DNA of 49,091 bases from an uncultured archaeon (GTDB lineage: Archaea; Asgardarchaeota; Lokiarchaeia; Sigyniarchaeales; SOKP01): assembly GCA_964486045.1 (NCBI GenBank), contig CAZALK010000010.1, positions 148,989 to 198,079 of the forward strand. The letters are read 5' to 3'. The first letter of the stretch is position 1; each line of letters opens with the position of its first letter. Below, piece after piece: positions 10,960-15,071 of this stretch. Under the pieces are notes generated by a model. That model was not told the DNA's origin. It saw nothing but the letters and a program-made list of their open reading frames with translations, and did no database searches. A program made the translations under genes and the position numbers.

Positions 10960-11320
10960 TTTGCAAAAGGAACTTAATTCTAATTTATGAGATATTTATA
11001 GTATAGTGTATTGCTTCATCGTAATAATTATTATTTTTATTACTCTCTTCTTTTAAAAATTTAATTCAATATAATCTTAACTGTTTTTTAAGGAAATGTG
11101 AGATTTTTATTGAACTTAACTTTTTATTCCACATAACTTCTGATAAATTATTTTGTTGGAATTTGGTTAATTAACATTAAATTTGAATTATAATTTATTT
11201 GTTTTTTGTATGCTGGAAATGTATTTTGGAGGAGAAAAATAACAGTTAAGGGACTATCGTCTCTAGGTACTGAAGTAAATTTACTGAATTTATTTAAAAC
11301 TTCCTCAAAATCAACAAAAT

Positions 11321-12424
11321 TTAGATCCTTCTTCTCCGCCATATGAAAACACCAATAACAGCTAATATACCGATTACTGCCATTAAGATTATTAATATCC
11401 AGTAATTAAATTCTACCATCCATATATCAATCGCTAAATTTCCTAAATATGGATCAAAAGTTGCTAAAATTTTAAAAGCAGAATATGATCCTATCACCGA
11501 CGAGGATAATTGATTGTATCCTTCCGTAATATCAGTAAATCCACCATCTTGGAAATACTGCCGAGATAAAACCCAAGGTGGAGTTTTATCAGCATTTAAA
11601 AAATTATTATCAATTAAATTTATCGACATAACACAATAATAAGTACTGCTGAGTAAAGAGGATTTAGATGTTAGATCAGGTAAGTATCCACCAATATTAT
11701 TTACATCTGATGGATTATTGATGTAAAAAGAGGTTAAGTAAGAAAGTGTTTTACTTTTATTAACTAAATCATCAACAGATGTTAATTGATCCAAGAGCGA
11801 GACAGCATAATATGTAGAAAGTAAAGTGGAAGTCTTATTTCCATAACCGCCATCTGTATTATTCTGTAACAATATCCAATTCCTGTGGAGGGTTAAATTC
11901 TGTAAGGTTTCAGAAGGGGCCAACATTGAATGAATTTGAATAACAAAATATGTTGAGCTTAAATTTGGTGACATTGAGATATTTAGATTTGAAAAACCAC
12001 CACCGATTTGTTCTGTGTCATTAAAATATTGAAAAATTCTATCTTGTAAACCTCCTTCAATTGCATAATCACTCTGAAGAATAAATAACGATTTAAACAG
12101 AAAATACAAATTATATAAGTCGACAGCATCGTTACTAAACATATAACTTATCTCATCCTCTAGATTAGTTTTAAGGTTAGTAATATCATGGGCGTTTGTC
12201 CCAAAACTAACTAAAATTTCTAAAGCATAAGCTGTTGCTTCAAAAGAAATATCTCCGAACGGATCTTCATCATACTCAAAACCCTGACCTTCAGTCTCGG
12301 TACTATAAATAAAATCTGTCAAGTATGCTTTTCTCGTTTTACCTAAAACATTAGGAATTATACTTAATGTGAAGAACAAAATTAGAAACACGACCAGTAT
12401 ATTGCGATAATTGCTTCTCAACAA
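11321..12424 (-). CDS. Membrane-anchored prenyltransferase/squalene-cyclase-repeat (alpha/alpha toroid) protein
   Basis: N-terminal signal peptide; repeats GGGFS..LSSTY, DGGYG..LLSTYYAV, IGGY..LSSTYYCV and QDGGF; C-terminal TM helix followed by WRRRRI. Confidence 0.8.
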   Translation of the reverse strand: MLRSNYRNILVVFLILFFTLSIIPNVLGKTRKAYLTDFIYSTETEGQGFEYDEDPFGDISFEATAYALEILVSFGTNAHDITNLKTNLEDEISYMFSNDAVDLYNLYFLFKSLFILQSDYAIEGGLQDRIFQYFNDTEQIGGGFSNLNISMSPNLSSTYFVIQIHSMLAPSETLQNLTLHRNWILLQNNTDGGYGNKTSTLLSTYYAVSLLDQLTSVDDLVNKSKTLSYLTSFYINNPSDVNNIGGYLPDLTSKSSLLSSTYYCVMSINLIDNNFLNADKTPPWVLSRQYFQDGGFTDITEGYNQLSSSVIGSYSAFKILATFDPYLGNLAIDIWMVEFNYWILIILMAVIGILAVIGVFIWRRRRI

Positions 12425-12535
12425 AATAAACCAAATTTTGATTATTACATTTTAATTATTTAATTTACCTTAAAATTAAAAATTAACGGTATCTAAAGAA
12501 CCAATTCAAGATAAAAATGATCTAAAATTAAAAAT

Positions 12536-14056
12536 TCAAAGAATTTCGCTTATATCTCTATATAAGAGATCACTATTAGATTGAAACTGCTCATGTGTAA
12601 TAAAGAGTTTTTGAAACGAAGGTAAACTCCCTAAAATAGCTGCACCGTTAAAAATTGCAAATTGAAAATTCTCAGGAATAAAAAATTTGATAACTTTGTT
12701 AGAACTTTCCATATATTCAACAAAATTTTTAGCTGGTGTTTTTTCTATTGAAATATCAGGTTTCTCAAAGGTTTCAACTGATCTTCCACAATAAGGGCAA
12801 AATAGGGAAGTAGCATCTTGTATTTCCTTATTACAATGGGGACATTTTTTTTTTTTCTTTTTTGAACTTTTAGTCTCACTTCGAGAAGAGAGATCGATCT
12901 TAATTTCAGGTAAGGATAATCTCCCCCCACAAGAAGGACAATGTTCAATACCAGTGGATAAATCTATCATCTCACCACAATGACTACAATTATCATGTAC
13001 CTTTTTAGAAATCTCTACAGCTTGAAGTTTAATCAACTCAGTTTTCACAGTAGATAATGTAGGTTTTGGCCTCGGGATCGAGCCTAACTGCGGTAAAACT
13101 GCAATTAACTCTGATTGAAGTCTTTGTTCAAAACCACTATATGATAAATTCCCACCTGAAAATACAATATGAGATAATAACTCATGCCAATATTTGTTAT
13201 CCAGAACTCTTAAACTAGCAATTATTGCTTCGGTAAGATTCATGACACTACTTACCCCTAACATACCTGGATTAAAAAGAACTTCTGGTGCTTGATAAAG
13301 AACATGATTAGCAACAGTGATATTTGAGCCATCCGGCATTGGAACAGCAAATTTCTCTCCGGTTTTTGGAGGATCATTAGGATCTATGACAAAATAGCAA
13401 TTTTTTTCCTTAATTTCTTGAATAATTTCATCAGCAGCACTCGATGTAATATTAACACCTTCTCTCATCAAGAGGTTTTTTAAATTATGATTTACATCAA
13501 TTCCTGCTAATGCAAGCTTTTGGACAGCATGATCTTGCATTACTCCGTTCACGATCGGAGCGATCCACGTTAAACCATCCCCAGATTCTATAACTAACCC
13601 CGTGGTTAAGCCTACACTAAACAATGATAGCAATGGTGTAGCCATCATTATTAAACTTGATACACCATGAGTTTCAAACAATAATCTGGCGATATATTCT
13701 TTAGTCTCTCGATGCATAAATGGGGATTCGCAATAAAAAACTGGATAATCCGAAACGGATTTTACTCGTAGTAGAGAATAAAATATATAATTCAGAATTT
13801 CGAAATAGCTGTCCCAGTCCATAATCGCGCCCCTTTCGATTGGGTGGTTGATCTTAAGAACACCACGCATCCTACTCACATCGTTGCCTACATACATGCT
13901 CCTAGCACTGATGTCAACCATAACGGATTTATATTTCTCAGTACCAGTAATGCATGGAAATACAAATCTAGGACCAGGCTCTCCTGCAAATCCGATCTTT
14001 ACATAGGCTGAGCCTATATCAATTATAATTGGTGTACCTGATAGAGGTATTGCCAT
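12536..14056 (-). CDS. Actin-related protein with a double zinc-ribbon insertion
   Basis: IIDIGSAYVKIGFAGE..PRFVFP, PIERG, LFETH, ESGDG, LAGIDV, IKEKNCY, PEVLFNP, IVFSGG and GAAILGSL are collinear with actin. An insert of roughly 125 aa carries CSHC, CPSC, CPHC and CPYC. Confidence 0.95.
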   Translation of the reverse strand: MAIPLSGTPIIIDIGSAYVKIGFAGEPGPRFVFPCITGTEKYKSVMVDISARSMYVGNDVSRMRGVLKINHPIERGAIMDWDSYFEILNYIFYSLLRVKSVSDYPVFYCESPFMHRETKEYIARLLFETHGVSSLIMMATPLLSLFSVGLTTGLVIESGDGLTWIAPIVNGVMQDHAVQKLALAGIDVNHNLKNLLMREGVNITSSAADEIIQEIKEKNCYFVIDPNDPPKTGEKFAVPMPDGSNITVANHVLYQAPEVLFNPGMLGVSSVMNLTEAIIASLRVLDNKYWHELLSHIVFSGGNLSYSGFEQRLQSELIAVLPQLGSIPRPKPTLSTVKTELIKLQAVEISKKVHDNCSHCGEMIDLSTGIEHCPSCGGRLSLPEIKIDLSSRSETKSSKKKKKKCPHCNKEIQDATSLFCPYCGRSVETFEKPDISIEKTPAKNFVEYMESSNKVIKFFIPENFQFAIFNGAAILGSLPSFQKLFITHEQFQSNSDLLYRDISEIL

Positions 14057-14153
14057 TTCAAATCAATTGGTTGTTTTTTTTTATTATGTTATTAACTTAC
14101 AAAATTTGTGATTTTTTTGTTTTTATATTTTTATTAAAAAAATTATAGATTAA

Positions 14154-14582
14154 TTAATTTTTCATAAATTCAAATAATTTTTTTAAGATTTGGGTTTGTA
14201 CAATTAAACCAATAAGTTGATAGCTATCATTAATAACAGGTAAACGTTGGATGTTTTTTTTAAACATTAATTTGAGGATATTTCTAATAATTTCATCCTT
14301 TTTAATAACGTATGGTTCAGAAGTCATTAAATCTTTAACTGTAGTATTAGGTGATTCTAAACTCATAGCAAACCTAGCTAAGCGTATATCTCTTTGGGTG
14401 ATGATACCAATTAGTTGTCGATTTTTCTGATCCTTAACGACAGGAAGTCCACCTATTTTTTTCTTAAGCATTAAAAGTTCGGTTTTACTAATTTTTTCAT
14501 ATGGAGTTATAAAAAGGGGATTTCTCACCATTATCTCTGAAGCTTTTATTTCACCTAATTGTTGTAAGCGATCTTCCCCCAT
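14154..14582 (-). CDS. CBS-domain pair protein
   Basis: IGGLPVV..LIGIITQRDI, VKDLMT and IQRLPVI..LIGLI. Confidence 0.9.
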   Translation of the reverse strand: MGEDRLQQLGEIKASEIMVRNPLFITPYEKISKTELLMLKKKIGGLPVVKDQKNRQLIGIITQRDIRLARFAMSLESPNTTVKDLMTSEPYVIKKDEIIRNILKLMFKKNIQRLPVINDSYQLIGLIVQTQILKKLFEFMKN

Positions 14583-14690
14583 TTTTAATCCCCGTAATAA
14601 TAATCTTTATCGAGGGCTTAACTAAACATTTCCTATTACATTTTACTTATATTATTGAAATTAATCATTGTTTGAATTAAAATTTATTTA

Positions 14691-15071
14691 TTAATTAGTT
14701 TTCACTGTTTCTTCAAGATTTTGTTCGATTCTTTTTAATTTTTTGGAGTAAACATTATATTTCTGTAAAAGATATCTTCCCCACTCATTTAGTTTAACCC
14801 ACCCTCCACCTCCAGGACCACCTTTACCAGTTATCACAACAGTCATTCCTGTTCTACCTTCAATTCTCTTCAGAATATTCCATGCATACTTGTAAGAATA
14901 GTTACACTCTTTAGCTGCTTGAGTCAAGGAACCTTCTTTATTTCTTTCTATATTGTTAAGCAAATTAGCCCAACCTTTTCCCAAGATACTTTTATCTTCG
15001 AATTCTAACCAAAATTTTACACCAAAACTGAGTTTAGATTTTAATTTCTCAATTTTGGGTTCTTCAACCAT
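14691..15071 (-). CDS. ModE-type winged-helix transcriptional regulator (DNA-binding domain only)
   Basis: GSLTQAAKECNYSYKYAWNILKRIE...GKGGPGGGG..LNEWG. Confidence 0.9.
   Translation of the reverse strand: MVEEPKIEKLKSKLSFGVKFWLEFEDKSILGKGWANLLNNIERNKEGSLTQAAKECNYSYKYAWNILKRIEGRTGMTVVITGKGGPGGGGWVKLNEWGRYLLQKYNVYSKKLKRIEQNLEETVKTN

Follow-up and report, generated by a model that had tools for sequence, protein, structure and literature searches.

The stretch of DNA analyzed here (the window) is 49,091 nucleotides long and comes from an uncultured archaeon of the Lokiarchaeia. It is also present in two marine-sediment DNA sequencing runs, which may be its source. At positions 12536..14056, on the minus strand, lies an unbroken reading frame of 506 amino acids plus stop that encodes a zinc-ribbon actin-related protein (ZnR-ARP, P0001). 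This is almost certainly a conserved actin-related protein specific to its lineage. All coordinates below are likewise on the minus strand. Upstream and co-directional is a ModE-N-like helix-turn-helix (HTH) protein of 126 aa (14691..15071; TIGR00637, E 3e-17, below the cut-off). Between that gene and the ARP sits a gene for a CBS-pair protein (14154..14582), found in many relatives but not all. Downstream, again co-directional, is the gene for a surface protein (11321..12424) with a signal peptide, a prenyltransferase-like alpha/alpha-toroid, a C-terminal transmembrane (TM) helix, and a short basic tail.

The actin part of the protein comes in two pieces. The N-terminal 323 residues (13088..14056) hold subdomains 1, 2, and 4 and most of subdomain 3, up to the helix that ends ELIAVLPQ, as assigned from Pfam, PDB alignment, and an AF2 model. 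The C-terminal 52 residues (12539..12694), from the strand VIKFFIPE onwards, supply helices of subdomain 1 by alignment and AF2. Pfam Actin (PF00022) matches at 222.7 bits (cut-off 27; E 8e-66) in two stretches, one at residues 8-322 and the other in the C-terminal part. In a sequence search, PDB actins match in the range 1e-63 to 1e-71, aligning to residues 4-323 and picking up again at residue 455. The top match is an Asgard actin, 9wc4 (“HC1 actin”), at 2.6e-71; eukaryotic actins follow at about 1e-65. Structure prediction, which a reading of the DNA from sequence only had proposed as a check, gave the same picture. The AF2 model has the four-subdomain actin fold with core pLDDT mostly 85-94, and Foldseek places it on actin structures with target-normalized TM scores of 0.87-0.92.

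By these alignments, the actin fold is complete and the phosphate-1, phosphate-2, and adenosine loops are intact. Nine positions (D11, G13, K18, G156, G158, K213, E214, G301, and G302, in actin numbering) are invariant in 124/124 family sequences. The equivalent of the D-loop, residues 40-53 (13898..13939), has the core KSVMVD and the same length as in actin.

The catalytic positions are a different matter. Gln137 and His161 have a catalytic role that is established in actin biochemistry, and conventional actin and Lokiactin have both. ZnR-ARP has neither. At position 137 stands Thr140 (13637..13639), and the family has T in 104/124 and S in 19/124 sequences, which makes T or S in 123/124. At position 161 stands Trp164 (13565..13567), with W in 119/124. 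In addition, Glu157 (13586..13588) replaces actin Asp154, with E in 121/124. Thus, as read from the family alignment, the ATP-splitting residues of actin have been replaced across the whole family. Thr and Trp at 137 and 161 might, of course, still allow some hydrolysis.

Between the two pieces lies the insert, residues 324-454 (12695..13087). The sequence-only reading had put it at about 125 aa and about 12700-13080; the actin alignments give 131 aa, falling between actin positions 323 and 326. It carries four CxxC motifs, which pair into two predicted Cys4 ribbons. Ribbon 1 (C357, C360, C373, C376; 12929..12988) matches Pfam Zn_ribbon_3 and DZR and has an AF2 pLDDT of about 70. Ribbon 2 (C405, C408, C420, C423; 12788..12844) matches DUF7575, Zn_Ribbon_1, and DZR. 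These cut-offs are only just cleared: DZR (PF12773) scores 27.5 bits with the whole protein, against a cut-off of 27.3, and 31.1 bits with the insert by itself. With the Actin match, they bear out the earlier description of the protein as an actin relative with a grafted double zinc ribbon, and the module is predicted to bind metal.

In 62 aligned family members, all four cysteines of ribbon 1 are invariant, and the four of ribbon 2 are retained in at least 90%. Ribbon 2 is missing in the alignment from P0127 and from the orthologue in Ca. Lokiarchaeum ossiferum. As far as the alignment tells, then, ribbon 1 is the constant element of the family and ribbon 2 is occasionally lost. Insert columns as a whole match core columns in conservation. 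Shortly before the actin fold resumes, there is an acidic-aromatic motif (12707..12733; family consensus A-x-E-F-x-E), whose E444 and F445 columns are at least 90% conserved in the same 62 members; AF2 weakly predicts a helix there, at residues 443-451 with low pLDDT. In the AF2 model, the ribbons have pLDDT 64-73 and the linkers fall below 50, with flexible linkers of about 25 aa flanking the ribbons on either side. This difference suggests folded beads on flexible tethers. The linkers had been called proline-rich; they are only mildly so.

The sequence-only reading also placed weight on a poly-lysine tract. A run of six lysines is indeed present, K399-K404 in the variable linker between the ribbons (12845..12862), encoded by AAA AAG and then an A12 run. 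A Lys-rich linker is shared with close relatives of this genome, but the tract is not conserved beyond them, and the net charge of the linker ranges across the family from -2 to +7 (median +2). A tract so local cannot carry the argument for binding membranes or nucleic acid, and as a conserved element of that kind it was rejected.

The family is well defined. The insert is retained in orthologues of about 505 aa that fall into more than 120 clusters, from independent assemblies, and it occurs at the same site in closed genomes, including that of L. ossiferum (G138). Within one Lokiarchaeial order, the one to which both cultured Lokiarchaeia belong, ZnR-ARP is nearly universal. Among actins, centractins, and Asgard ARPs, which alone made up the tree, ZnR-ARPs form a separate clade with SH-aLRT 100 and a stem of length 0.59; Lokiactins and eukaryotic actins fall outside it. 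The clade takes in L. ossiferum UYP44711.1, identified by exact primer matches, and the copy in G135, both with the insertion at the same site. Two candidates were set aside. P0199, the one weak candidate for an insert-less sister (SH-aLRT 90, long branch), was rejected as evidence for an ancestral form; it comes from an 8.8-kb contig of uncertain origin, with a DENN-domain gene next to it. Top matches of 429-688 aa from a representative search, which seemed to be insert-bearing actins, are mis-predicted eukaryotic actin gene models.

The orthologues of L. ossiferum and G135 are 36-39% identical to the protein of this genome. In both, the ribbons are followed by a basic motif of the RKEKKLLKK type and a long acidic tail; the protein of this genome instead has poly-Lys in its inter-ribbon linker. 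L. ossiferum has one ribbon only, against two here. UYP44711.1 is one of three “ARPs” in Rodrigues-Oliveira et al. (2022). For the other cultured organism, MK-D1, a supplementary table annotates DSAG12_03244 with Actin at 15-324 and a double zinc ribbon at 373-430 (Imachi et al., 2020); going by that annotation, DSAG12_03244 is probably the MK-D1 counterpart. In culture, its RPKM was 229, about half the 501 of Lokiactin (Imachi et al., 2020). Such a level is not strongly sub-stoichiometric. In L. ossiferum, transcripts of Lokiactin lie severalfold above those of the other actin homologues, UYP44711.1 among them.

The table just cited is the sole record of the insert that we found in the literature on Asgard ARPs and Lokiactin, with no description in a main text. 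Thus, the fusion of an ARP with a double zinc ribbon is already listed but functionally uncharacterized, and the earlier concern that the architecture might already have been characterized falls away.

The site of the insert suggests what the protein might do. In F-actin, adjacent subunits touch where residues 322-325 (subdomain 3) of one meet residues 243-245 (subdomain 4) of the other (PMC7247010). The alignment puts the insert in exactly this 322-325 loop, which belongs to the barbed-end face of subdomain 3. The reading that we favor, tentatively, is that a poorly hydrolyzing ARP docks on Lokiactin by its pointed-end face and displays its zinc ribbons as an adaptor. Here, ZnR-ARP would bind ATP and hydrolyze it slowly or not at all, which would suit a structural subunit and not a dynamic polymer. 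Through the D-loop VMV, the 61-65 loop, and PDG at 243-245, all on its pointed-end face, ZnR-ARP would dock on a Lokiactin filament or subunit at the barbed end, and the insert would fill or alter the site for subdomain 4 of the next subunit. It would thereby serve as a cap or marker of the filament end, with the ribbons held out to dock another partner. Candidate partners include an envelope-linked complex, another cytoskeletal protein, or nucleic acid.

Conservation is consistent with such an arrangement. Over 13 diverse members, the share of the commonest residue averages 0.59 overall, 0.68 in the pointed-face sets, and 0.98 at positions 61-65. On the barbed face, the corresponding shares are 0.48 (283-294), 0.47 (the W-loop), and 0.40 (320-325) in subdomain 3, and 0.39 at the C-terminus. 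The contrast is a modest one, and the lists of interface residues behind it come from what is known of actin. The D-loop is nearly invariant in close relatives and has a conservation of 0.62 in the 13 diverse members. The hydrophobic groove at the barbed end reaches 0.68 in the same set; a conserved groove would also suit a protein whose barbed end receives a subunit or a ligand. The linkers, at about 25 aa, could swing the ribbons aside; the 322-325 contact might then form, with ZnR-ARP inside the filament.

An alternative, which we consider unlikely, is that ZnR-ARP is itself a filament former, either as a homopolymer or as a co-polymer along Lokiactin, with the ribbons decorating the surface as multivalent docking sites. 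The full-length D-loop, the conserved groove, and an equivalent of the plug region would serve such a polymer, as would the flexible linkers on both sides of the ribbons and the RPKM in MK-D1. Actin residues 326 and 328 are surface-exposed tropomyosin contacts (compare PDB 9zbp), and the insert adjoins them, so a tethered module could reach the filament surface. The catalytic residues, however, are lost family-wide, which would be unusual in a dynamic polymer, and the insert sits in the loop that makes the longitudinal contact. Further, a homopolymer should constrain both faces, whereas conservation is lowest on the barbed face of subdomain 3 and at the C-terminus.

Gene order raises another possibility, a rather improbable one, in which the job of the adaptor is to couple the cytoskeleton to the envelope through the neighboring surface protein, whose toroid is extracellular. 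Throughout the order, the ARP lies directly upstream of the prenyltransferase-like TM protein and co-directional with it. The pair is kept even where identity drops to 36% for the ARP and 24-28% for its neighbor, and in other orders the surface protein is present without an adjoining ARP. Against this, the cytoplasmic tail, at no more than about 5-6 basic residues, is too short to make a specific contact. Separate transcription of the genes is suggested by the spacers between them, about 100 bp long, in which T-runs and AT-rich, promoter-like sequence occur. The order ModE-like HTH, ZnR-ARP, membrane-anchored surface protein is found also in L. ossiferum (G138) and G135, and in L029, L030, L008, L009, and L011 the ARP has an HTH homologue upstream. 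In many genomes, FolD and the HTH gene are just as syntenic, so the linkage of ARP and surface protein may be inherited gene order and not function.

It is distinctly improbable, by analogy with the nuclear Arps of INO80 and SWR1, that ZnR-ARP works away from filaments as a monomeric, ATP-bound scaffold attached through its ribbons and basic linker to DNA, RNA, or a nucleic-acid machine. Nuclear Arps are structural and do not polymerize, and loss of the hydrolysis residues would be expected of such a protein. The insert does match, weakly, the C4 ribbons of eL43/eL42, RNA polymerase subunit P, and NOB1, and its linker is Lys-rich in this genome and close relatives. Yet a search of PDB sequences with the insert returned only generic C4 ribbons (eL43, RpoP, NOB1, FYVE) at E 0.014 or weaker; with Pfam barely over its cut-offs, this looks like generic CxxC spacing. 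The same query found nothing above cut-off in NCBIfam and no usable match in the ESM Atlas. The basic tract is not conserved, and few parts are as well conserved as the D-loop and the 61-65 loop, which points to an actin-type contact. Moreover, the nearest paralogous ribbon modules in Lokiarchaeia belong not to nucleic-acid enzymes but to non-actin proteins, including a multi-pass membrane protein, in which they are terminal. Within this genome, a search with the insert module found one ZnR-ARP only; a second match was rejected as an unrelated 196-aa protein with a single C-terminal ribbon.

There is practically no chance that the insert is an artefact of mis-assembly, frameshift fusion, a mobile element, or an intein: its A12 homopolymer is prone to slippage, but the frame is continuous, the insert is as conserved as the core, and its recurrence at one site in orthologues and closed genomes refutes the idea.

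The reading of ZnR-ARP as a docking adaptor can be carried further, to a proposal that is speculative and not very likely. Here, ZnR-ARP would be an independently evolved filament-end factor, dead in hydrolysis, that caps the barbed ends of Lokiactin and uses its ribbons to anchor those ends to an envelope complex or to the FtsZ/ESCRT division machinery. Were this so, ARP-based control of actin in Asgard archaea would have arisen separately from the solutions that eukaryotes found in Arp2/3 and dynactin.

The regulation of Asgard actin bears on the origin of the eukaryotic cytoskeleton. Asgard profilins and gelsolins have been studied; to our knowledge, no Asgard ARP has a known function. ZnR-ARP is found order-wide, is transcribed in culture, and is altered both at the site that splits ATP and at a filament contact loop, with ribbons that offer a handle for finding partners. 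Whether it caps, nucleates, or anchors Lokiactin would say whether regulation of the ARP type predates eukaryotes.

Set beside Lokiactin and conventional actin, with which it shares 35-39% identity, ZnR-ARP has the fold, the nucleotide loops, the length of the D-loop, the hydrophobic groove, and the plug region in common. It differs in size (506 aa with a 131-aa insert, against about 375-385 aa with no large insert), in its separate clade on a long stem, and in the substitutions Q137T, H161W, D154E, K336Q, and H73R. As for the ribbons, archaea offer a precedent for their binding a cytoskeletal protein: in Haloferax, the CPxCG zinc ribbons of CdpC bind FtsZ1 and help to anchor it to the membrane (bioRxiv 10.64898/2026.07.16.738847). 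The likeness, judged for CdpC from the description in the preprint, lies in tandem Cys4 ribbons of the CPxCG type (compare DZR, PF12773) joined by disordered linkers. ZnR-ARP carries the module within an actin fold and not at a terminus, and no amphipathic membrane helix was identified in the protein.

The eukaryotic Arps offer the other comparison. The Arp2/3 complex templates growth from the barbed end, and Arp2 and Arp3 retain Q137 and H161. The sequence-only reading had suggested an adaptor or a nucleator. Of these, an adaptor that binds or caps ends would fit the site of the insert and the lost catalytic residues better than a nucleator like Arp2/3. The 99%-complete genome gave no match to ARPC2 or ARPC4 (PF05856, PF04045); neither did the control genomes, so the sensitivity of this search is unproven. 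Arp3 probably carries an insert in the same helix-strand loop as ZnR-ARP; the sequence-only reading put shorter insertions around this position in both Arp2 and Arp3. We know of no eukaryotic Arp with a double zinc ribbon insert. The insertions of Arp3 govern how it binds filaments and hold a non-actin subunit in place (PMC4947185). In this, the loop inserts of Arp3 and the insertion domains of Arp5 and Arp8 follow the same principle as ZnR-ARP, that of a non-canonical subunit with an actin fold whose lineage-specific inserts serve partners other than actin.

The open reading frame of ZnR-ARP, the actin-related protein (ARP) under study, occupies 12536-14056 on the reverse strand and translates to 506 amino acids. 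Residues 8-322 match Pfam Actin (222.7 bits), and the match restarts past residue 455. Likewise, residues 4-323 and 455-495 align to actins in the PDB (the top match being the Asgard "HC1 actin" 9wc4, at 2.6e-71), and the gap between is unaligned. Here lies the insert, residues 324-454, a stretch of 131 amino acids encoded at 12695-13087 (-). It carries two Cys4 ribbons, C357/C360/C373/C376 and C405/C408/C420/C423, which meet the Pfam thresholds for Zn_ribbon_3, DZR, DUF7575 and Zn_Ribbon_1; the sequence-only reading had placed the insert and its CxxC motifs correctly. AlphaFold2, run with the family alignment, models the actin core confidently, gives both ribbons pLDDT values of 64-73, and gives the three linkers (333-350, 383-402 and 429-453) values below 50. 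This suggests that, within the insert, flexible tethers join folded beads.

The nucleotide-binding residues D11, G13, K18, G156, G158, K213, E214, G301 and G302 are invariant across 124 family sequences. Several other positions have changed. Actin's Gln137 is Thr or Ser in 123 of the 124, His161 is Trp in 119, Asp154 is Glu in 121, Lys336 is Gln in 113, and His73 is Arg in all. In actin, of course, Gln137 and His161 position the attacking water. Because both are replaced in ZnR-ARPs, the protein is likely to bind ATP while hydrolyzing it weakly or not at all.

The D-loop has the length of actin's and retains a hydrophobic V-M-V core. On the barbed-end face, alignment to actins shows that the insert splits exactly the loop 322-325, whose residues in F-actin belong to subdomain 3 and touch residues 243-245 in subdomain 4 of the neighboring subunit (PMC7247010). 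Surface conservation was scored as the fraction of 13 diverse members having the commonest residue, with residue sets taken from knowledge of actin. The mean is 0.68 for all pointed-end contact sets, 0.98 for positions 61-65 and 0.68 for the hydrophobic groove, against 0.59 for the whole protein; it is 0.48 for subdomain 3 residues 283-294, 0.47 for the W-loop, 0.40 for residues 320-325 and 0.39 for the C-terminus. The contrast is modest, and fits a subunit that might make an actin-type contact through its pointed-end face, with a remodeled barbed-end face.

The mechanism that we tentatively favor, without rating it as probable, is that ZnR-ARP, probably poor at hydrolysis, would dock via its pointed-end face onto the barbed end of Lokiactin. 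The insert would then prevent or change addition of the next subunit, with its zinc ribbons offered as a docking module. It is rather unlikely that ZnR-ARP instead forms filaments itself, with the ribbons as decoration.

The genes nearby bear on another alternative. ZnR-ARP belongs to a co-directional cluster at 11321-15071 (-), made up of a ModE-N-like HTH protein (126 aa; 14691-15071), a CBS-pair protein (14154-14582), ZnR-ARP, and a surface protein (11321-12424). The last is a prenyltransferase-like alpha/alpha-toroid with a signal peptide, a C-terminal transmembrane helix and a short basic tail. Within the genome's own family, the order is HTH, sometimes CBS-pair, ZnR-ARP, toroid protein and usually FolD, all co-directional. 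In relatives (loci L008-L011, L029 and L030), FolD sits between the surface-protein gene and a 151-aa gene; here that slot (10960-11320) offers only a 64-aa frame (11148-11342), so FolD is either missing or moved elsewhere in the genome.

In the order that holds this genome and both cultured strains, ZnR-ARP also adjoins the toroid protein at each locus inspected outside its own family: in Ca. Lokiarchaeum ossiferum and G135 (f3), in G130 (f2), and in G280 and G282 (f4). L. ossiferum and G135 have the HTH gene upstream as well. Identity to these orthologues is 36-45% for ZnR-ARP and 24-29% for the toroid neighbor. In other orders, the surface protein is present without an adjoining ARP. This constant adjacency would favor a specific link from cytoskeleton to envelope formed by ZnR-ARP and its neighbor's product, an idea that overlaps with that of an adaptor. 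However, the surface protein's cytoplasmic tail of ~5 residues argues against direct contact, and the intergenic gaps of ~100 bp, with T-runs, also count against the link, which we consider unlikely. The linkage is a lead only, and does not count as evidence for binding.

Within the insert, the conserved elements are, in chain order, an LPQLG-x-IP exit from the actin helix, a KLQA-x-E segment, ribbon 1, a short L-P-E-I-K-I strand, ribbon 2, and an acidic-aromatic A-x-E-F motif directly before re-entry to the actin fold. The poly-Lys tract emphasized at first reading is real as a six-Lys run, but is a local feature. KKKKGK-like patches are frequent in the inter-ribbon linker of close relatives and absent from more distant ones, and the linker's net charge has a median of +2 (range -2 to +7) across the family. 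The L. ossiferum/G135 branch has instead an RKEKKLLKK-type basic motif and a long acidic tail C-terminal of the ribbons. The codons of the six-Lys run are AAA AAG followed by an A12 run; this homopolymer (12845-12856) is a slippage-prone site in the insert's most variable part.

In Lokiarchaeia, the closest ribbon paralogues of this module are found at the ends of non-actin proteins, one a multi-pass membrane protein. The module thus resembles a portable domain for cytoplasmic interactions. Among its closest non-ARP relatives is the N-terminal double zinc ribbon of a 370-aa multi-pass membrane protein (L037, G263:C52). ZnR-ARP seems quite unlikely to be a scaffold bound to nucleic acid in the manner of the nuclear Arps.

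Searching 5.8 billion proteins yielded over 120 clusters with identities of 61-89%, almost all of them 502-512 aa long and bearing Actin and zinc-ribbon domains. In an alignment of 62 sequences with identity down to 37%, none of the four Cys in ribbon 1 varies, and those of ribbon 2 are retained in at least 90%. Among 50%-identity representatives, P0122, P0123, P0124, P0126 and P0129 retain both ribbons and P0127 one. That earliest-branching member lacks ribbon 2, as does the L. ossiferum orthologue (L013), which sits within a group of two-ribbon forms and has therefore lost it; ribbon 1 is thus the indispensable one. A survey of 400 genomes of the phylum found the insert in 129 of 134 genomes of its own family (f1), 1/1 of f2, 13/14 of f3 and 4/4 of f4, all families of a single order; outside that order it returned only weak, generic ribbon matches. 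In two genomes from other orders of the class, the top match to the whole protein was a 380-aa Lokiactin. An assembly artefact, which the sequence-only reading had allowed for, is scarcely conceivable for an insert so widely shared, with columns conserved to the same degree as those of the core. One 409-aa version (P0026), 100% identical to the protein studied here across 80% of its length, probably reflects a gene call cut short or a break in a contig of some other assembly.

The suggested actin-family phylogeny was run with 63 sequences (IQ-TREE, quick setting, LG+C20), covering the ZnR-ARP family, this genome's other actins, Lokiactins and ARPs of L. ossiferum and G135, eukaryotic actins, centractins and unnamed representatives, without Arp2 and Arp3. 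In this tree, whose backbone is unresolved, ZnR-ARPs group as a single clade (SH-aLRT 100, on a stem of length 0.59), apart from Lokiactins, 373-385-aa ARPs of the UYP44126.1 type, eukaryotic actins and centractin. A search for an insert-less sister of this clade found no convincing one. P0199, a 373-aa unnamed actin, groups weakly with it; its gene adjoins a DENN-domain gene on a compact 8.8-kb Logan contig (L040), whose origin could be Asgard, protist or giant virus. This genome's other actin-family genes (G000:C1:345097-346209, C24:48553-49662, C3:1185-2273, C10:2-1042 and C6:132328-132882) include two Lokiactin paralogues (~381 and ~386 aa) and an ARP of 383 aa that is of the UYP44126.1 type; of the rest, one is truncated where contig C10 begins, and one, a frame of 206 aa, spans part of the fold only.

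Published RT-qPCR primers match the closed 6.04-Mb genome G138 exactly, identifying it as L. ossiferum, and the UYP44711.1 primer pair falls within its one-ribbon ZnR-ARP orthologue. In that strain, Lokiactin transcripts stand severalfold above those of other actin homologues, this orthologue among them (Rodrigues-Oliveira et al., 2022). The orthologue in G135, a closed genome of 4.36 Mb, has two ribbons and is 552-555 aa long. For strain MK-D1, a supplementary table annotates DSAG12_03244, the probable counterpart, with Actin at 15-324 and DZR at 373-430, and the reported RPKM is 229, versus 501 for Lokiactin and 248 for the other ARP (Imachi et al., 2020). The fusion is thus already on record, and transcribed. 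In the literature on Asgard ARPs and actins, no text discussing or testing it was found, and the sequences are publicly available with labels like "zinc ribbon domain-containing protein."

Zinc ribbons that act as cytoskeletal adaptors do have a precedent. Those of haloarchaeal CdpC, of the CPxCG type, bind FtsZ1 and contribute to its anchoring at the membrane (bioRxiv 10.64898/2026.07.16.738847). The ribbons of ZnR-ARP may be likened to these by description.
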